Assembly: GCA_003213165.1 (NCBI GenBank) | Contig: QCNO01000001.1 | Coordinates: 65,152-129,151, forward strand | Direction: 5' to 3' | From: OCS155 cluster bacterium AG-426-D23 | Lineage (GTDB): Bacteria; Actinomycetota; Acidimicrobiia; Actinomarinales; Actinomarinaceae | DNA length: 64,000 nucleotides | Shown: in pieces, positions 1-7,604 of the stretch | How positions within the stretch are numbered: position 1 is the first letter of the stretch | How the letters are laid out: the number at the start of each line of letters is the position of its first letter | Program-made: the position numbers and the translations under genes | The notes under the pieces: generated by a model | Database searches by the model: none | Told to the model about the DNA's origin: nothing | Seen by the model: the letters and a program-made list of their open reading frames with translations, nothing else

Positions 1-2970
1 CACAGCTGATCTTCTTGTAAGTGCTAATTCCTCAGCAAGTCCATTTACACAATCTGTTCCTTCAGGAAAATATATCGAGTGGAGATATGCTGTATCAGAT
101 GATCAAAATACCCTGGCAACAGCCCCAGCCCAAGCAGCGCTACAATCAACTGCAGTAAATTGTGACATTATTGATCCAAGTTTCTTAACATCACAAGGGT
201 CATGTAGAGACGGGACCAAAGAAGCCTACTTTTTTGCAAAGAATGGTGCTTCCGCAACATCGGATGTATATTTTCAAGTTGAATCAAAAGTTAACGGAGG
301 TGCATGGACATCTGAAAACACAGTGATTGTTGCGCCTAATTCTCAAGTGCAAATTCAAAAACCAAATCTTACAAACGCTGATACGATTCAATGGAGATAC
401 AAGACTTCCAAGGACAATGCAACCTTCTCAACAAACTATCAAGAAACGACTGTAATGACAATTTCTTGTACATCACAAAATGAAGTTGATGGTTTAATTG
501 GAAACACATGTGCATCTAATGGTTCTAAAACCGCAACAGTTACGTCCGTAAATAACAGTTCTTCAGACGTATATTATTTGATTGAGTATGCTCTCGAACA
601 AAATCCTTCAAACTGGTTATCAGTCACAGACAATTTTGGATTACCAGCTCAGGGAAGTAAAGATGATCTTGTCAACCTACCAGAGGGTAGTTACTTTACA
701 TTGAGGTATAAGACTTCTACTAGTAACAGCTTTACAGGTGTTGAGTATAAGACTTTAGATACTTTGGGACCAGTTAATTGTTCAGGTGATATTGAAGTAA
801 GAGTTGCATTAGACGCGTGTGTTAATGGTACGAGAAATTCAGTATTTTATTACCGCAATAAAGCAAGCACAGGGGCACCAGCATTTTTTGAAATTGAATA
901 TCAAATTGATGGTGGAACATGGACTAATCCAAAAGGTGCACAGACAAATAATTACTATACAGCTATACAGAATGGTGTAGAAGAATCTGTTTCAGTTTCA
1001 GTACCTTCGGATTCTACAATTTCATGGAGATATAAAGATACACTATCTGTGAATGCTTTATCAACAAAATCATTTGAATTGGCAACACCTACTCCTTTGT
1101 CAGTATTATGTGAGGGTCTTCTTGAACACACAGTTGCGATTGGATCTTGTGTTGACAGAAAAGCCTCATCAACACTTACTTTGAAAAATATTGGATCTGT
1201 TGATGTGTATGCGGATATTTGGATTAGTTATGATGGTGGAAATTCATGGAATAACCATGCAATAAGCCAGAAAGTTACAACGACTGCAGATAAGGTATTT
1301 ACTCAAAACAATATTGCGAATGGATCAATTGTTAAGTGGAAATATAAGTATGCAAGTACAGCTGCGGGTGTTGCAAGTGCTGATGAAGAACTCACGAATG
1401 ACAAACCTGCAATTAATTGTGATGAAATAGTTATTAGCCAATTAACTTATGAACATAGTTTCGCTAATTGTGTAGAGGGACAAAGGATTGGAACCTTTAA
1501 AATTAACAATCCTTCAACAACAAACAATATTGTTTATGTAGAAGTGCAATACAGAACAAAGTCATCTCTAAATGGTACTTGGTCAGGCTATACGACAATG
1601 CCTATCGAGGCAATCAATGCTGGGTCCTTTAAAGAATTTAGCGCACCTGCTTTAAATGCTAATGGTTATATTAACTGGCAATTTAGATCCTCGTTAGCTA
1701 ATAATGACTTCGCAGGAGCTTGGACAAATGCGTCATCAGCCTACAAATCTGAGTGTTCAATAGACTCAACATTTACTCATACTTTAGGTAATTGTGTAGA
1801 TGGTGAGCAGTACTCTATTTTAACCATTAACAATACCGGATCCGTTACTCAGTACTATAACGTTCAAGTACAAATCAATAATGGAACAGCAGAGACAAAG
1901 TTTGCAAATGTTGCAATCTCGTCTGGATCAAGTGGTGAGTTTAAATGGCCAATCAGACAGGGAGAGTCAATCAGATGGCAATTTATTGCATCTATAGACA
2001 CTGACTTTAGTGATGACAATTCAGTACCATCATTATCAAAGACAAATCAATGTACACCTGTCTTTACATTGCAAACTCAAACAGCCTGTCAAGATGCGTC
2101 TACAGTAAATAACAACCAAGCAACCAATACGAAGGTAACATTAACCTTGAATAACACTTCTTCAGTCGATGGAAGTGTGACTGTTCAATATAGATATTTA
2201 CAAACTGATACATGGAAGACTTTAACGACCACTCCAATTAATGCTAATCAACAAAAGACCGTTGATTACACATTGATTGATCCTTATGTTGAATTTCAAT
2301 ATGCTCCATCTGGAACTACAAATTGGACTAATAGTGGATTAGTTTACAAAATTACAAACTGCACATCAACTGGAAATAGCTTAACTGCGGTAAATGAGTT
2401 TATTTGTAGCGAGAATGATCCATTCTCTCAAGCAAAAATCTCTAACCCAACAAGTACAAGCTTGACTGTCACATATTCCTACTCATTTGATGGGGTAAGT
2501 TGGAATAATGAGACCCCAGTTTTGATAGCTTCCAACCAAACTCACTTTACGGATTTAATTCAAGTATCTCCAGGAACCCAAATTTATTGGAGATATAAAC
2601 CAACGAATCTTGCTGATGACGCCTATAAGACTTTAACTGACACATCACCAACAAACTGTCAAAATGGAACAAGTCAACAAATTCTCCATTCGCTTGGAAC
2701 TTGTGTAGATAATAAGGCGCTTTCAACTATTAAAGTTACAAATATCTCTAGTTCGCAAAAATCATACTTGCTGGAGTACAAGATAGATAATGGTGCATTT
2801 GCTCGATACGAGACTTTAGTCATCGGTGCAGGTAATGACACAACAAAGACCCTACAAATTTCAGATGGACAAAATATACAGTGGAGAATAATTGATGCAA
2901 CTAGCGATGCCTCTACTATATCTGTTGATGGTAATTGGACTTCTTCAACTTCATTAACACTTAATTGCAC
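1..2970 (+). repeat. Diverged tandem coding repeats, ~310 nt per unit and at least 10 units, inside the giant surface protein
   Basis: The first Cys codon of successive modules falls at about 161, 467, 779, 1109, 1418 ... 2966, a spacing of 306-330 nt. The protein motifs recur (C..GxC[VA][DN]G, [IV]xY..DGG.W, WRYK) while the nucleotide sequence has diverged. Confidence 0.8.
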
Positions 2971-3625
2971 AACTACTACTACAACTCTTCCTGAGAACTT
3001 ATTTATTTTCGAACCTTTAATTTCGACAAATAGGGTTTGTGATGAAGACGGTGGAGCTATGTTTGGCATTACTGTTGACAACACAAGGTCCAATGTTGAT
3101 GCAGAAGTTATTCAAAGAGTGTGGGTCGATAAATTTACAGTGTTTGAAAAACAAGAAACTATTCCAGCAGGACAGTTTATTCAGTTCTCCAGTTTTGAAA
3201 TTAGTGAAGATAAGTTTTTCACCGTAGAGTTTGAAGTTACAAATGTTAAAAACAACAAGACACAAACAATGGTTAAAAACAAGACTTCAGACTGTATTGA
3301 CAATGGAATCAGTCCGACTGACGAACAAAATCCTATTGAGGGGATAGAAGTTGAAAATATTATCGATGGAGTTGGCGATGATGAAGAAATGGGAAATAAT
3401 GGAACAGATATTTTCTTCCTTCCTGGTGATGACTTTGTTGAATGGGTATATGATGAAAATGCAACTTCTCCAAATCCAACACCACTTTGTCCTGGAGATG
3501 CCAGTTGTAATAACAATGATGGATATGCAATAACAGGAACTAATGTTGGAAGATTAATAATTTTATTTGGTTCTCTACTTATGTTGATTGGTGGGCTTAT
3601 TTTGAGGAGAGGCTATAGGTACTAG
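1..3625 (+). CDS. Giant repeat-module cell-surface protein, 5' end outside the window, with a C-terminal sortase sorting signal
   Basis: Frame 2 is open from base 2 (T-A-D-L-L...YIEWRYAVSDD...). The ORF-track start at 323 is therefore an internal GTG. There are at least 10 tandem ~104-aa modules. Each opens with a Cys-x12-16-Cys pair and ends with an I/V-x-W-[RQK]-[YF]-[KR] motif. The C-terminus is YAITG + hydrophobic helix + RRGYRY. Confidence 0.85.
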   Translation, partial: TADLLVSANSSASPFTQSVPSGKYIEWRYAVSDDQNTLATAPAQAALQSTAVNCDIIDPSFLTSQGSCRDGTKEAYFFAKNGASATSDVYFQVESKVNGGAWTSENTVIVAPNSQVQIQKPNLTNADTIQWRYKTSKDNATFSTNYQETTVMTISCTSQNEVDGLIGNTCASNGSKTATVTSVNNSSSDVYYLIEYALEQNPSNWLSVTDNFGLPAQGSKDDLVNLPEGSYFTLRYKTSTSNSFTGVEYKTLDTLGPVNCSGDIEVRVALDACVNGTRNSVFYYRNKASTGAPAFFEIEYQIDGGTWTNPKGAQTNNYYTAIQNGVEESVSVSVPSDSTISWRYKDTLSVNALSTKSFELATPTPLSVLCEGLLEHTVAIGSCVDRKASSTLTLKNIGSVDVYADIWISYDGGNSWNNHAISQKVTTTADKVFTQNNIANGSIVKWKYKYASTAAGVASADEELTNDKPAINCDEIVISQLTYEHSFANCVEGQRIGTFKINNPSTTNNIVYVEVQYRTKSSLNGTWSGYTTMPIEAINAGSFKEFSAPALNANGYINWQFRSSLANNDFAGAWTNASSAYKSECSIDSTFTHTLGNCVDGEQYSILTINNTGSVTQYYNVQVQINNGTAETKFANVAISSGSSGEFKWPIRQGESIRWQFIASIDTDFSDDNSVPSLSKTNQCTPVFTLQTQTACQDASTVNNNQATNTKVTLTLNNTSSVDGSVTVQYRYLQTDTWKTLTTTPINANQQKTVDYTLIDPYVEFQYAPSGTTNWTNSGLVYKITNCTSTGNSLTAVNEFICSENDPFSQAKISNPTSTSLTVTYSYSFDGVSWNNETPVLIASNQTHFTDLIQVSPGTQIYWRYKPTNLADDAYKTLTDTSPTNCQNGTSQQILHSLGTCVDNKALSTIKVTNISSSQKSYLLEYKIDNGAFARYETLVIGAGNDTTKTLQISDGQNIQWRIIDATSDASTISVDGNWTSSTSLTLNCTTTTTTLPENLFIFEPLISTNRVCDEDGGAMFGITVDNTRSNVDAEVIQRVWVDKFTVFEKQETIPAGQFIQFSSFEISEDKFFTVEFEVTNVKNNKTQTMVKNKTSDCIDNGISPTDEQNPIEGIEVENIIDGVGDDEEMGNNGTDIFFLPGDDFVEWVYDENATSPNPTPLCPGDASCNNNDGYAITGTNVGRLIILFGSLLMLIGGLILRRGYRY

Positions 3626-5253
3626 TGCAGTATTTTTTTGTATATCTTTTTATTATAATCCTGAATATTGTTGCAGTCCTTGCAGTCCTAAGGGTTAGAA
3701 GAAAAAGACAGAATGATCCAAATGTCATCACTGATGTTCAAGATAGTGATCTTATTTACGATTCAGATCTTGAAGACGAAGTAAAAAAACCACGCTTTTC
3801 GAGATTTTCTAGAAAAAGTAATAATTTAACTGTTGGTTTTAACGATATAGCAATAGATGATAGAGAATTTGTTTATGGAGGAGATTTACTAGACCTTGCT
3901 GTTGAAAAAGAAGTAATCAAGAAAAAGGGAACATGGTATTTATATGAAAATGAAAAGATTGCTTATGGAAAACAAAAGGCAAAGTTTTTCTTATTAGAAA
4001 ATCCTGACATCGCTAATGAGATTAGCAATATAGTTTATGGAACCATACAGGTACAAAATAATGAGATGAGTTCTGAAGAGAGTTCAGATGAAATTTCTAT
4101 AAATAACAATGAAATAGAAAATCAAAAATCTGTAAATTTACTTACACAAGAATACGAAGTTGAGCTTGCTGAAGTTTATATAAAATCAAATACTTTAAAA
4201 AAAATCATTGAAAATACAATTGGGACAGAAGTCTTAATAAGTATCGATATTGGTAAAAAATTTAATCCAGTATTAAATTCTAAAAATTACCTTACAGAAG
4301 TAACAGGCATGTTGAATGAAATGGATTACATGATTGCAGCTGTAGAAAATGTAAGTAAAAACTCAAAATATTTAGGAATCGAAGTAAATGAAGAGCTTTT
4401 AAGAGAAAGACTTAACTTATTAATGTCGAGTCGTTTTACAATTTTATTTACTAAGAAGCCAGTAAGTAAACACCTTTCTTTACCAAGTTTAAATTTCAAC
4501 AACAGAGTAAGCACAGTAACCAGACAGAAATCTGGCTATGTAACAAATAGTGGACGAAGACCTGGGATTGTTCCACTTGGACTTGGCTTATTGATAGCTG
4601 GTCTTCTAGTAATTATTTATTCAATAAGTCAAACTTTTTTCTCAATGTCAGTATTAGATGATGAGCAAAATTTACTTAGTGTCAAATATCAACAAAACCA
4701 GAATATTTCACTTGAAGAATTGCGATCTATAAATTCAAATTCTTTAGAAACAAATGTATCACTTGATGAAACAGGGGAGTTTCAAGAATCCGTTCTAAGT
4801 CTTGTTAGCAAAACAATGAGAAACACAAATGCCAATGAGGAGTTTCTTCCTGATGTTGTAGGAAGATTAATAATATTCCCATCAAATATTGACCACTATG
4901 TTGTTTACGGTTCGAGCTTAGAAAAATTAGAGTTTGGTCCTGGTTATTATCTATCTACAGCTCTTCCAGGAACGGGTGGAAATTTTGCTATTGCCGGGCA
5001 CAGAACTACTTACGGTGCCCCATTTAAAAATTTAGATAAACTTGAACCCGGAGATAACATATACTTTCAAACTAATTCAAACCAATATACATATACGGTG
5101 AGTGAGATAAAAATTGTGGATCCAAGTGAAACATATTTGTTATCTTCATTTGGAGATGACAGGATTACATTAACAACTTGTCACCCAAAATTCTCAGCTA
5201 GGCAAAGACTGGTTGTTGTAGGTATGTTGACAAAAATTGAGGTATTTGGATGA
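3625..5253 (+). CDS. Sortase (class-E-like catalytic domain) with an N-terminal TM helix and a long cytoplasmic extension carrying a RecA C-terminal-domain-like segment
   Basis: The C-terminal ~130 aa carry the sortase triad context AIAGHR ... LTTCHP ... ARQRL. TM helices lie at aa 4-22 and ~315-338. aa 81-138 resemble the RecA C-terminal domain. The GTG start overlaps the upstream TAG stop (TAGTG). Confidence 0.85.
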   Translation: MQYFFVYLFIIILNIVAVLAVLRVRRKRQNDPNVITDVQDSDLIYDSDLEDEVKKPRFSRFSRKSNNLTVGFNDIAIDDREFVYGGDLLDLAVEKEVIKKKGTWYLYENEKIAYGKQKAKFFLLENPDIANEISNIVYGTIQVQNNEMSSEESSDEISINNNEIENQKSVNLLTQEYEVELAEVYIKSNTLKKIIENTIGTEVLISIDIGKKFNPVLNSKNYLTEVTGMLNEMDYMIAAVENVSKNSKYLGIEVNEELLRERLNLLMSSRFTILFTKKPVSKHLSLPSLNFNNRVSTVTRQKSGYVTNSGRRPGIVPLGLGLLIAGLLVIIYSISQTFFSMSVLDDEQNLLSVKYQQNQNISLEELRSINSNSLETNVSLDETGEFQESVLSLVSKTMRNTNANEEFLPDVVGRLIIFPSNIDHYVVYGSSLEKLEFGPGYYLSTALPGTGGNFAIAGHRTTYGAPFKNLDKLEPGDNIYFQTNSNQYTYTVSEIKIVDPSETYLLSSFGDDRITLTTCHPKFSARQRLVVVGMLTKIEVFG

Positions 5254-6815
5254 AGTCTAAAAAATTTATTTCTGTTTTCCTCATATTTTTATTTTTTATA
5301 AATGCTGGAGATATTGAAGATGCTGAAATCAACATTTCAGCACAACGAGTTGACTCAAATGATTTAGTTATTTCCTGGTCAATGAACGAAGTTGAAAACT
5401 TACAAAATATAGTTCTGGAGGTATTATTTGAAAATCCTGAAGATGGACAAATTGAAAACCCACTAATCATTGACAATATCACAATGGACGAACTTATTGG
5501 TTCAAGAACAATTAATTGGAGTGGAGAGTCTAAATTATTCATAAAATTAAAAATATCAACATTTAATTTTGTTCAATACACGGGCGATGACTGCACTCAT
5601 ACTTTCTGTTTAAGAGAAGTTACAGAAGAGTATGAATCAGAGGAATTTATTATTGATGAAATGCCTGAAATACCAATATTAGTTCCGACTACTATTGCAA
5701 CACCCGATATCAATTTAGACGCTACAGAAGAAAGTTCTACAGTTGGTAATATCGAATTTACAAACCAATTAATAACAACTATTCCATTATTTAGTGATAT
5801 AGACTTTTCAGATCAGGCAAAAAATGCATTTGCATTTGGTATTACCTCAATGATTATATTTTTATTTTATGCTGTTCTATTAGCACAAGAATGGTTCAAT
5901 AGAATTATTTCACACTATAGAGTGAAATGGACAAGAAGAGAGAGTGTCTTACAGGAAAAAACCAGACTAGAGACATTCATGGAGATTTCATTAATGGCAA
6001 TGATTACTTCTTTGATATATGCTTTTGTTGAAGAGGGTTTTACATTTTCTGTAGAGCCACAAAATCTAGCAATATTTCTTGGTGTTTTGTTTGGGTTGAT
6101 TATTGTAACATTTTCTTATGAGGGAATTGAGTCTTTGATTGAATACTTTAAATATAATCAAAAAACAAGATTTAGTTGGAATCCGCAAGCTATGTTCTTT
6201 GCTATTTTATCCACCATACTATTTATTGTTATAGACCTTCCTTTTGGTTTTATATTAGGTTTCATAGCTTCTTTGCACATAGTTTCAAATCGTCGCCAAG
6301 CAAATCTATCACCCAAGTTTTTCTCTATGATCTCTTTGGCTATTGTCGGATATTTATTCTTCTATGCAACCTCATTTGATTCGGTACAAAATTCAGGCGT
6401 ACTAATGGCGGTTTGTAAATTGACTTACCTTATGTGTCTTGAGGGTGTCATCTTTAAAGCTGTTCCATGGGGTGGCAATGAGTTGTTTGATGCAATTGGA
6501 GATTCAAAAGGACTAAATCAAGCATTGCCTGTTGTTAGTTTTCTAATAAGTGTATGGCTGTTTATTAGAATTTTGGTATTACCTCCAGACAGTGAATTTA
6601 ATGCCATGCAGCAGACATTGTTACAAAGTGGATCATTAGCATATAGATTTGCTCTAGTTTTGCTTTTCTATATTTTGATTATTCTTATTTTAGGAAATTT
6701 CATGAAAAAATATGCTGAATTGAATAGACCTCTAGATTACGATGGCAGTGAAATTGCTTCAGATGAAGAAATAGGTGAAATTATTGAGGAAGAATTAGAA
6801 GATTCAATTCGCTAA
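5250..6815 (+). CDS. Polytopic membrane protein with a signal peptide, a ~190-aa extracellular beta-rich domain and an acidic C-terminal tail; function unknown
   Basis: ATGA overlap with the sortase stop codon. N-terminal signal peptide MKSKKFISVFLIFLFFINA. About 8-9 hydrophobic helices lie between aa ~195 and 500. The tail is DYDGSEIASDEEIGEIIEEELEDSIR. I recognise no family. Confidence 0.7.
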   Translation: MKSKKFISVFLIFLFFINAGDIEDAEINISAQRVDSNDLVISWSMNEVENLQNIVLEVLFENPEDGQIENPLIIDNITMDELIGSRTINWSGESKLFIKLKISTFNFVQYTGDDCTHTFCLREVTEEYESEEFIIDEMPEIPILVPTTIATPDINLDATEESSTVGNIEFTNQLITTIPLFSDIDFSDQAKNAFAFGITSMIIFLFYAVLLAQEWFNRIISHYRVKWTRRESVLQEKTRLETFMEISLMAMITSLIYAFVEEGFTFSVEPQNLAIFLGVLFGLIIVTFSYEGIESLIEYFKYNQKTRFSWNPQAMFFAILSTILFIVIDLPFGFILGFIASLHIVSNRRQANLSPKFFSMISLAIVGYLFFYATSFDSVQNSGVLMAVCKLTYLMCLEGVIFKAVPWGGNELFDAIGDSKGLNQALPVVSFLISVWLFIRILVLPPDSEFNAMQQTLLQSGSLAYRFALVLLFYILIILILGNFMKKYAELNRPLDYDGSEIASDEEIGEIIEEELEDSIR

Positions 6816-6821
6816 AGCTTA

Positions 6822-7604
6822 ATGAATAACAGAGCAACATGGGTGTCTTTTTCAATACTAGCTATTGGGATATTCTTGATTGTTTCATACAACAATATCT
6901 TGAGCGGTACTGCAACAACTACTACTATTCCAACAACTACTACTATTCCAACAACAACCACAACGTCTACCACAACTACAACATCTACGACAACTACAAC
7001 TACTACTATTCCAACAACAACCACAACAGTTGAGGTAACCCTAGAGAAAGATTCGGTGACTATAAATGATGATAGTCCTATAGACGTCACCCCATACGAA
7101 GGTGTATTTGTAGCTTTTGATGGATTCGAGGGTGAAAACCAAACTTTATTAGATACTTTGGTACAAAATCTTCCTGAAGTGTACAAGCAAACAATGTTAG
7201 AAAAAATATCATTTATAAATGGTTGTCACCTCTACGGGGTAGAAATGTTGGGTGAATGTCCATTCGGTGTATGGGACTCAGTAGGAACATTTAAAAATGG
7301 AGATACAAATGCTGATTGGAAATTATCGATATGGGTATCAAATAGAGCCTTTAAGGCGAATAGGGCTTTTGATACATTGCTACACGAGTCTTCACATGCA
7401 TTTTCTTACCTCAGTAGGAACTGTATTGCGCCAGATGGTTCAAACAAAAGAAAGCAGGCCCAGGAGTATTTTGGTAGTGAAGAACTTTTTGCAGATTCTT
7501 TAGTTCTCTATTTCGGTGGAGATTATGTTTTTTATCGAGAAACAGATGTTTTAACTGATACAGAGGTTAGTTACTTAAAAGAATTTATAGATCTCTGCAG
7601 CTAA
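6822..7604 (+). CDS. Membrane-anchored protein with a Thr-rich linker and a HExxH zincin-like domain (putative metallopeptidase)
   Basis: N-terminal TM anchor WVSFSILAIGIFLIVSY. About 40 aa of T/P/I/S linker follow. The motif LLHESSHAF (HExxH) is at 7383..7397, with a downstream acidic GSEELFAD. The start is 6 nt after the previous stop. Confidence 0.65.
   Translation: MNNRATWVSFSILAIGIFLIVSYNNILSGTATTTTIPTTTTIPTTTTTSTTTTTSTTTTTTTIPTTTTTVEVTLEKDSVTINDDSPIDVTPYEGVFVAFDGFEGENQTLLDTLVQNLPEVYKQTMLEKISFINGCHLYGVEMLGECPFGVWDSVGTFKNGDTNADWKLSIWVSNRAFKANRAFDTLLHESSHAFSYLSRNCIAPDGSNKRKQAQEYFGSEELFADSLVLYFGGDYVFYRETDVLTDTEVSYLKEFIDLCS
6909..7029 (+). repeat. Low-complexity ACN/CCA codon repeat encoding the linker TTTIPTTTTIPTTTTTSTTTTTSTTTTTTTIPTTTTT
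   Basis: Read directly in the sequence. The unit actactactattccaacaac recurs three times, interspersed with acaac/tctac variants. Confidence 0.9.

Follow-up and report, generated by a model that had tools for sequence, protein, structure and literature searches.

A RecA C-terminal domain in the predicted cytoplasmic loop of a class-E-like sortase from Candidatus Actinomarina

Organization of the locus

The window analyzed here, a stretch of 64,000 nucleotides (nt) of contig QCNO01000001.1 from OCS155 cluster bacterium AG-426-D23 (Actinomarinaceae), begins within a gene cassette of constant order, in which a gene for a giant surface protein of more than 3,300 amino acids (aa) is followed by a sortase gene and by a gene for a polytopic membrane protein (Table 1). 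The sortase is the subject of this report. Between its two hydrophobic segments, in a loop that is predicted to be cytoplasmic, it carries what is almost certainly a copy of RecA's C-terminal domain (RecA_C), followed by a conserved domain of its own family.

The GTG start codon of the sortase gene overlaps the stop codon of the giant-protein gene (TAGTG), and its own stop codon overlaps the start of the membrane-protein gene (ATGA), which suggests that the three genes are translationally coupled. The sortase N-terminus, M[QAS]YFF.YL, is kept in all orthologues. The loop was subdivided using conservation and structural modeling. The full-length AlphaFold2 (AF2) model is poor, as only 19 closely related sequences entered it (mean predicted local distance difference test score, pLDDT, of 45), and was used solely for secondary structure and for confirming the class E neighbors of the catalytic domain; a second model reached a mean pLDDT of 60. 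Selection was measured as the ratio of nonsynonymous to synonymous substitution rates (dN/dS), calculated by the Nei-Gojobori method between the window and its orthologues.

Table 1. Features of the sortase cassette in the window
Feature	Position (nt)	Strand	Remarks
Giant surface protein gene, 3' part	1..3625	+	Frame open from base 2, runs off the left window end
C-terminal sorting signal of the giant protein	3524..3622	+	YAITG (3524-3538), hydrophobic helix, RRGYRY tail
Sortase gene with RecA_C-containing loop (predicted cytoplasmic)	3625..5253	+	542 aa, GTG start
Transmembrane helix 1 (aa 4-22) and basic cluster RVRRKRQ (aa 23-29)	3634..3711	+	Kyte-Doolittle peak 3.0; dN/dS 0.02-0.09
Variable linker 1 (aa 30-80)	3712..3864	+	Acidic patch DSDLIYDSDLEDE, then basic patch KKPRFSRFSRKS
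RecA C-terminal-domain module (aa 81-138)	3865..4038	+	Matched by Pfam over aa 86-138 (nt 3880-4038)
Acidic variable linker 2 (aa 139-174)	4039..4146	+	7 D/E, 1 K/R; pLDDT below 50
Conserved family-specific middle domain (aa 175-290)	4147..4494	+	pLDDT 77-88 in sub-model
Basic variable linker 3 (aa 291-314) and transmembrane helix 2 (aa 315-338)	4495..4638	+	Linker with 5 K/R, 0 D/E
Stalk (aa 339-405) and sortase catalytic domain (aa 406-542), predicted extracellular	4639..5250	+	
Catalytic-domain sites H459; C519; R528; S3-subsite Y442	4999-5001; 5179-5181; 5206-5208; 4948-4950	+	
Membrane protein gene	5250..6815	+	521 aa; start overlaps the sortase stop (ATGA)
ORF without family match	6822..7604	+	260 aa; syntenic after the membrane protein

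Identity of the RecA_C module

An earlier note, made from the sequence by eye, had taken residues 81-138 of the sortase (nt 3865-4038) for a segment resembling the C-terminal region of RecA, at 35-45% identity and without gaps, and had stated that the RecA ATPase core is missing. Profile searches against RecA models bear out both statements. The Pfam model RecA_C (PF21096) matches residues 86-138 through positions 1-53 of its 57 positions with an expectation value (E) of 8.9e-19 and a score of 67.8 bits, which is 2.5 times the gathering score of 27. By BLASTP against residues 270-325 of Escherichia coli RecA, 24 of 52 positions are identical (pairwise E = 7e-16); the identity of 46% thus lies slightly above the estimate by eye, and the expected gap-free alignment was found, with sortase residues 86-138 facing E. 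coli RecA 272-323. In a phmmer search of the PDB, 23 RecA chains were matched, all without gaps and all in their C-terminal domain, the single-copy chains at E values from 2.6e-11 to 7.7e-06. The residues quoted in the earlier note are correct, apart from the trivial point that the string ends one residue later, at G139.

The RecA core model PF00154 does not match the sortase open reading frame (ORF), and the full recA model TIGR02012 is matched only at its C-terminal end (positions 267-319 of 321; 41.3 bits against a cut-off of 325.3); therefore, the ATPase core with its Walker motifs and DNA-binding loops L1 and L2 is absent, and the protein is not a RecA. Two other Pfam assignments of the module, LPD18 (E = 0.0013) and ATP-cone (E = 0.039), scored below their cut-offs and were disregarded.

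The secondary structure in the AF2 model (helix 88-94; strands 98-101, 104-107, and 110-114; helices 116-125 and 127-140; pLDDT 70-76) follows the order that is typical of the RecA C-terminal domain (E. coli residues ~270-328; PDB 1AA3, 2REB, and 3CMU), namely one helix, three strands, and two helices, albeit at moderate confidence and with a second model that is poor in this region. A further likeness is the acidic, poorly conserved stretch that directly follows the domain in the sortase (residues 139-174) as an acidic tail does in RecA, where it restrains DNA binding. This stretch could be a retained feature of the RecA tail or a mere linker. The differences are that the sortase module lacks the RecA ATPase core, is built into a membrane protein, and is present in a single copy that is not arrayed along a filament. 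We are nearly certain that the module is a true copy of this RecA domain that has diverged and become domesticated.

Membrane topology

Exactly two hydrophobic segments (residues 4-22 and ~315-338) are present in every family member examined. The N-region of the first helix is uncharged, while its C-terminal flank carries the positive charges (RVRRKRQ). In the five members compared around the second helix, the 15 preceding residues hold three K/R and zero to two D/E (zero in four of the five), and the 15 following residues hold one K/R and three to four D/E. The positive-inside rule, applied to the charges of both helices, would place residues 23-314, a loop of ~290 aa, in the cytoplasm, with three N-terminal residues and the sortase domain outside. 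The RecA-like segment would then face the cytoplasm, as had been suggested before, and every member that was checked agrees. For the loop to be extracellular, the sortase domain would have to lie in the cytoplasm or helix 2 would have to fail to span the membrane, and in all five members the charge distribution opposes this arrangement, which we regard as negligibly probable.

Distribution and integrity of the fusion

Among genomes scanned at one per GTDB species, the fusion was found in 10 loci at 51-99% identity and at a full length of 541-555 aa. Most of these loci belong to single-cell genomes or metagenome-assembled genomes (MAGs) named Candidatus Actinomarina or OCS155. Three are deposited under other names, that is, "Anaerolineales bacterium UBA832" (L002, 99% identity), "Gammaproteobacteria bacterium RS590" (L005, 83%), and "Methanobacteriota archaeon ARS96" (L009, 51%), and are probably mis-binned contigs in public MAGs. 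A protein search returned 785 homologues, with hundreds of marine metagenome clusters at 47-99% identity. Among the 120 homologues listed (from ENA, JGI, Tara, NCBI, and Logan marine data), all but one (P0007) carry both PF04203 and PF21096, and all are 541-555 aa long except P0006 (436 aa), which retains both domains, and P0007 (415 aa). P0122, which at 47% identity is the full-length member that has diverged most, still scores 59.9 bits with RecA_C and lies in the same cassette, on contigs of up to 1.02 Mb.

That the fusion might be an artefact of chimeric assembly or of a fused gene call could be read from a single metagenome contig (L013 5617-7248; ENA ERZ28548061 contig_10799_pilon), in which the sortase is called as two genes of 123 and 415 aa. 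The split is due to two indels 83 nt apart, a -1 just after a run of eight A, where RecA_C has its KKK codons, and then a +1; the frame between them reads an intact RecA_C, and the contig is a pilon-polished metagenome assembly. P0007 was hence rejected as a natural variant without RecA_C. As a side observation, this homopolymer-type error has been annotated automatically as a cluster of sortases without RecA_C that counts 25 member sequences. Elsewhere, the ORF is uninterrupted in the 10 genome loci and in hundreds of clusters, which settles both the question of a split ORF and that of whether the fusion recurs in related genomes. Because the protein is full length across loci and clusters and the lone split is a sequencing error, the ORF is real and the fusion is fixed in the Candidatus Actinomarina clade; assembly artefact is excluded. 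The gene order in the window (rho, DUF1385, prfA, prmC, sua5, glyA, and then the atp operon) places the cassette in the core chromosome and not on an island.

Apart from RecA itself and the sortase family, no recurrent host of RecA_C was found among the best 150 of 1,362 matches in an exhaustive search of 1.84 billion representatives. With the loop as query, the matches outside the family were to RecA C-terminal domains only, and the remainder of the loop had no counterpart elsewhere. Of the 138 top matches outside the family, 137 carry RecA_C and 62 a portion of the RecA core. Among them, unrelated domains are limited to singletons, consistent with run-through gene calls. Ten matches of odd length were checked singly, and the nine that do not belong to the family are RecA or RecA fragments, some with inteins. 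Some RecA sequences of the representative library contain two tandem RecA_C stretches (P0133, P0138, and P0244, the latter at residues 352-405 and 424-477). These may be either true duplications or products of assembly, and P0133 has the look of a fragment that was duplicated.

Constraint and origin of the RecA_C module

The dN/dS of RecA_C is 0.16-0.18 where dS is measurable, compared to 0.02-0.16 for the catalytic domain, 0.06-0.10 for the middle domain in five of six comparisons (0.18 against the L009 orthologue), and values from 0.08 up to above 1 for the linkers. Against the L010 orthologue, RecA_C is 67% identical, whereas the flanking linkers reach 31% and 19%. Linker 1 shows 31-35% identity to the L009 and L010 orthologues, a dN/dS of 0.08-0.42, and a pLDDT below 50. 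Within the fusion family, residues K100, G102, W104, Y114, G115, and K116 of the module are invariant. Purifying selection and these invariant residues support the earlier proposal of a domesticated recA fragment.

A column-by-column comparison of 113 nonredundant RecA C-terminal domains with 11 nonredundant fusion modules specifies what has been kept (E. coli numbering). Conserved in both sets are G272, K286, G288, W290, Y293, G301, K/R302, L309, N312, P313, and I319; position 302 is filled by K or R in RecA and by K alone in the fusion. Of the six signature positions that are at least 97% conserved in RecA (K286, G288, W290, Q300, G301, and K/R302), five are invariant in the fusion. The fixed changes are Q300 to Y and N304 to K, and positions 307 and 310 are likewise fixed, as F and L. 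Lysine occupies positions 281, 282, 285, and 287 in 10 of the 11 fusion modules, a prevalence that is confined to the fusion. The family consensus over this lysine-rich stretch is AVKKKVIKKKGNWY, and the window itself reads AVEKEVIKKKGTWY, with E at position 282.

In RecA, the C-terminal domain acts as a "gateway" for duplex DNA that enters the filament (PMC10954442). K286 and K302 are well conserved there, and mutating either one impedes strand exchange, with contributions of K280 and K282 as well (PMC4666392). G288, Q300, and N304 form a site found by evolutionary trace, mutation of which lowers recombination and not LexA cleavage, and the N304D and G301D variants are null for recombination, which was read as a DNA-binding face that does not tolerate negative charge (PMC3164682). 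Of the residues that form the gateway, the module keeps the equivalents of K286, G288, W290, G301, and K302; it has a lysine in place of N304 and four more close by, and it has lost Q300. Judged from its residues, the module would fit a face that still binds polyanions, perhaps more strongly, but in an altered mode.

Alternatively, the RecA_C fold might serve as a compact structural or stability spacer that binds no ligand and aids folding, oligomerization, or protease resistance of the loop or the middle domain. Many of the conserved positions (G272, G288, W290, Y293, G301, L309, and N312-P313) belong to the core or to turns and would be kept by any folded copy, and the middle domain is under stronger constraint than RecA_C (dN/dS of 0.06-0.10 versus 0.16-0.18 where both are measurable). 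Yet K286 and K302 are invariant surface lysines that are functional and not structural in RecA (PMC4666392), lysine recurs at the four further positions in 10 of 11 nonredundant members that span 47-99% whole-protein identity, and the flanking linkers vary freely. We consider a spacer role quite unlikely.

Regarding its origin, no donor can be assigned, as the RecA domains closest to the module (among the top 138 matches outside the family) share only 50-54% identity with it and belong to mixed lineages. A recent horizontal origin of the segment was rejected, as its guanine-cytosine content (GC) and that of its third codon positions (GC3) are 0.29 and 0.22, compared with 0.31 and 0.21 in the rest of the gene. 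By its sequence, the module is an old, remodeled copy and not a recent capture. No recA gene lies in the window or in the examined loci. P0260, encoded on a 1-kb contig, was considered as Actinomarina RecA and rejected, since the product also has epimerase-family matches and looks chimeric.

These data also bear on the idea that the module still takes part in RecA biology by docking on RecA filaments or on proteins that usually contact the RecA C-terminal domain (LexA, RecX, or DinI), which would couple DNA damage to surface-protein anchoring or let the module act as a decoy. A domain fused to a new host can indeed hint at an interaction of the original proteins. Speaking against such a link, Q300, which is invariant in RecA, has been replaced, the distance to the closest RecA domains and their mixed lineages mean that the module has long evolved apart from recA, and the surroundings of the cassette, in the window as in the loci, contain no recA, recX, or lexA. 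Furthermore, we know of no homotypic contact between C-terminal domains in the active RecA filament. A link to RecA biology is thus very improbable.

The middle domain

The domain between RecA_C and the second membrane helix, with a predicted order of helix-strand-helix-helix-strand, seems to be particular to this family. An exhaustive HMMER search of 1.84 billion representatives gave no relatives outside it, a profile search against PDB sequences gave nothing below E = 0.2, and Foldseek searches with the sub-model gave nothing below E = 0.4 in the PDB or below E = 0.09 in BFVD.

The catalytic domain and its putative substrate

The Pfam model Sortase (PF04203) matches residues 421-535 (E = 9e-31; 106.7 bits versus 26.6), and H459, C519 (within TLTTC), and R528 are invariant in all eight aligned members. 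The best sequence matches in the PDB are Corynebacterium diphtheriae SrtF, Clostridium perfringens SrtD, 5GO5 and 5GO6 (deposited merely as "sortase" or "putative secreted protein"), and Streptomyces coelicolor SrtE1, while the best structural neighbors found by Foldseek are Thermobifida fusca SrtE (37% identity) and SrtE1 (35%). Class E (NF033747) is the top-scoring NCBIfam class, yet its score of 125.9 bits remains below the cut-off of 160. Because class E scores best without reaching this cut-off and the structural neighbors belong to class E, the sequence is best described as that of a class-E-like sortase. It also has the class E trait of a tyrosine in the beta3/beta4 loop together with alanine at P3 of the signal (YAITG in the window): Y442 aligns with F92 of C. 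perfringens SrtD, at the position of Tyr229 in SrtE1. Tyr229 has been proposed to select alanine at P3 of the LAXTG-type signal of SrtE1 (PMC5148588).

T. fusca SrtE (9IOK; 37% identity, Foldseek E = 1.5e-07) and C. diphtheriae SrtF (5UUS; phmmer E = 7.4e-19), the top structural and the top sequence match of the catalytic domain, share the H/C/R triad and the TLxTC motif. To our knowledge, neither RecA_C nor a second membrane helix nor a long cytoplasmic loop has been reported for these two enzymes. S. coelicolor SrtE1 (PDB 5CUW) is likewise an actinobacterial sortase (catalytic domain 35% identical) in which a tyrosine sits in the beta3/beta4 loop, as Y442 does here, paired with YAITG. In addition, and compared by description only, SrtE1 has a long cytoplasmic region with an acidic and then a basic patch, as found in linker 1 here, and a conserved stretch before the membrane helix in a similar layout. 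In SrtE1, the extension forms a free tail at the N-terminus that spans 100-200 aa and has no recognized domain (PMC5148588). The sortase described here differs in that its region of ~290 aa would be held as a loop through a second membrane helix at the N-terminus and contains RecA_C and a novel folded domain.

The giant protein encoded upstream is the only protein in the window that ends in such a sorting signal, and each of the 11 loci has an equivalent signal next to its sortase. The orthologous signals include YAVTG, FADTG, FAPTG, FARTG, YGPTG, IPFTG, and LPVTG, giving the family pattern [LYFI][APG]xTG. In nine loci, the residue at the position of 442 is Y and P3 is A or G, while in two loci (L009 and L010) the residue is I and P3 is P (IPFTG and LPVTG), a covariation that rests on one phylogenetic split. 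Since the S3-subsite residue covaries with P3, the sequences support a pairing of each sortase with the neighboring giant protein. The covariation also agrees with the role that has been proposed for the tyrosine of class E.

Orthologues of the giant protein measure at least 3,254-3,747 aa (L010 6-10001; L013 1-5617; L015 1-8001). No Pfam or NCBIfam model matches the giant protein, and the orthologue of L015-L017 has only faint precomputed matches (BNR, CHB_HEX_C, and Reelin subrepeat). By eye, the protein seems to be a series of repeated modules in which Cys and W.Y motifs recur. With more than 10 kb, the gene would occupy ~1% of a genome of roughly 1 Mb.

The downstream genes

The 521-aa protein encoded directly after the sortase has a signal peptide, an acidic ectodomain of ~170 aa (33 D/E), and about eight hydrophobic segments. 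It matches NF041501 ("FGLLP motif-containing membrane protein") weakly (46.6 bits versus a cut-off of 150), and a literature search on the "FGLLP" family returned nothing relevant. The gene is syntenic in L006, L010, L013, and L016 and is represented by two shorter gene calls in L015 and L017. In the window and in L006, L010, and L013, its product ends in a conserved acidic tail, EIGEIIEEELEDSIR, and the final 45 residues include 10-13 D/E. The next ORF of 260 aa has orthologues of 260-292 aa in L006, L010, L013, and L015-L017 and may be part of the same cassette.

The acidic tail provides the best candidate partner for a second explanation of the module, in which the lysine-rich face of RecA_C works as a protein adaptor and binds an acidic protein segment and not DNA, so that sortase, membrane protein, and substrate would be assembled into one complex. 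Acidic segments of this kind are RecA's own C-terminal tail and the acidic helix of DinI. The tail is conserved in the four loci just named, and the positive-inside pattern puts it in the cytoplasm if the segment at 318-336 is re-entrant. Both genes overlap (ATGA) and are adjacent in L006, L010, L013, and L016, and the fixed changes Q300Y and N304K indicate a surface that was remodeled relative to RecA. The authors of the SrtE1 study also favor protein partners for the cytoplasmic extension (PMC5148588). On the other hand, the topology of the downstream protein is ambiguous given its eight hydrophobic segments, and acidic tails and linkers are common, the sortase loop having acidic linkers of its own. 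Overall, a protein adaptor is the main rival to DNA binding and is deemed only slightly less probable than it, though still less likely than not.

Proposed function of the sortase loop

The reading that we favor, with a probability of roughly 0.4 and based on sequence comparison, is that a domesticated RecA_C domain binds a polyanion, probably DNA, and thereby positions or regulates a class-E-like sortase. According to this proposal, the catalytic domain would perform ordinary sortase chemistry on the giant protein outside the cell, while RecA_C inside the cell would be a sequence-independent polyanion binder, probably of duplex DNA and hence of the nucleoid. Jointly with the middle domain, RecA_C would set the location or the activity of the sortase from within the cytoplasm, and the loop may hold the sortase, and perhaps the products of the whole cassette, at a defined place. 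Duplex DNA is the obvious candidate ligand because the same surface binds it in RecA and because the membrane adjoins the nucleoid in a small cell. Positioning or regulation would have a parallel in the cytoplasmic extension of SrtE1, an analogy drawn at the level of layout. The SrtE1 extension is required for function in vivo (PMC5148588).

As a mechanism that could be similar if the module does bind DNA, we can point to Noc of Bacillus subtilis, a membrane-associated DNA-binding protein that links duplex DNA with the membrane on its cytoplasmic side. Noc differs from the sortase by its unrelated, ParB-like fold and by its peripheral attachment through an amphipathic helix without an enzyme domain, compared to RecA_C and two membrane-spanning helices here.

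Several points weigh against this interpretation. Q300, present in 100% of the 113 RecA domains, is Y in all 11 fusion modules, and the binding surface is therefore altered relative to RecA. The module in the window has a net charge of about -2 (8 K/R and 10 D/E). In RecA, the C-terminal domain binds DNA within the filament, where lysines of consecutive domains touch the duplex (PMC4666392), and a single copy might bind weakly. Both AlphaFold models are poor (mean pLDDT of 45 and 60). Finally, in a cell about 0.3 µm across, it is not obvious why a membrane enzyme would have to be placed with respect to DNA. For the individual parts of the proposal, our expectations are graded accordingly: DNA binding by the RecA_C module of the sortase is a tentative suggestion held with real doubt, and the more specific version, in which the sortase couples the chromosome to the anchoring of the giant surface protein through a RecA-derived "gateway" domain, would be slightly less likely again.

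Novelty and significance

Full-text literature searches returned no paper that joins a sortase with the "RecA C-terminal domain" or Actinomarina with a sortase, and the Actinomarinales genome papers searched do not mention sortase, LPXTG, or RecA. This agrees with the earlier note, whose author knew of no such fusion. The automatic Pfam annotation of the family proteins already displays both domains; the fusion is therefore visible in databases and has remained undiscussed in the papers reached. Class E sortases such as SrtE1 already offer examples of long cytoplasmic extensions. New here are a RecA_C domain in a sortase loop held by a second membrane helix and the new domain next to it.

Sortases are usually viewed as extracellular enzymes with a simple membrane anchor. 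The extension described here includes a domain of known ancestry with a known ligand, which turns its role into a testable question, namely whether it binds DNA. Candidatus Actinomarina, one of the smallest and most abundant free-living bacteria, has not been cultured, reaches very high numbers in the surface ocean, and is extremely streamlined. For this reason, a conserved cassette with a gene of more than 10 kb and a predicted cytoplasmic loop of 290 residues is unlikely to be dispensable. The family also indicates that the RecA C-terminal domain is able to persist as an independent module. If the coupling to the chromosome were true, this would be the first case in this analysis of a RecA_C domain at work outside of RecA, and likewise of a sortase that carries a module for binding nucleic acids.

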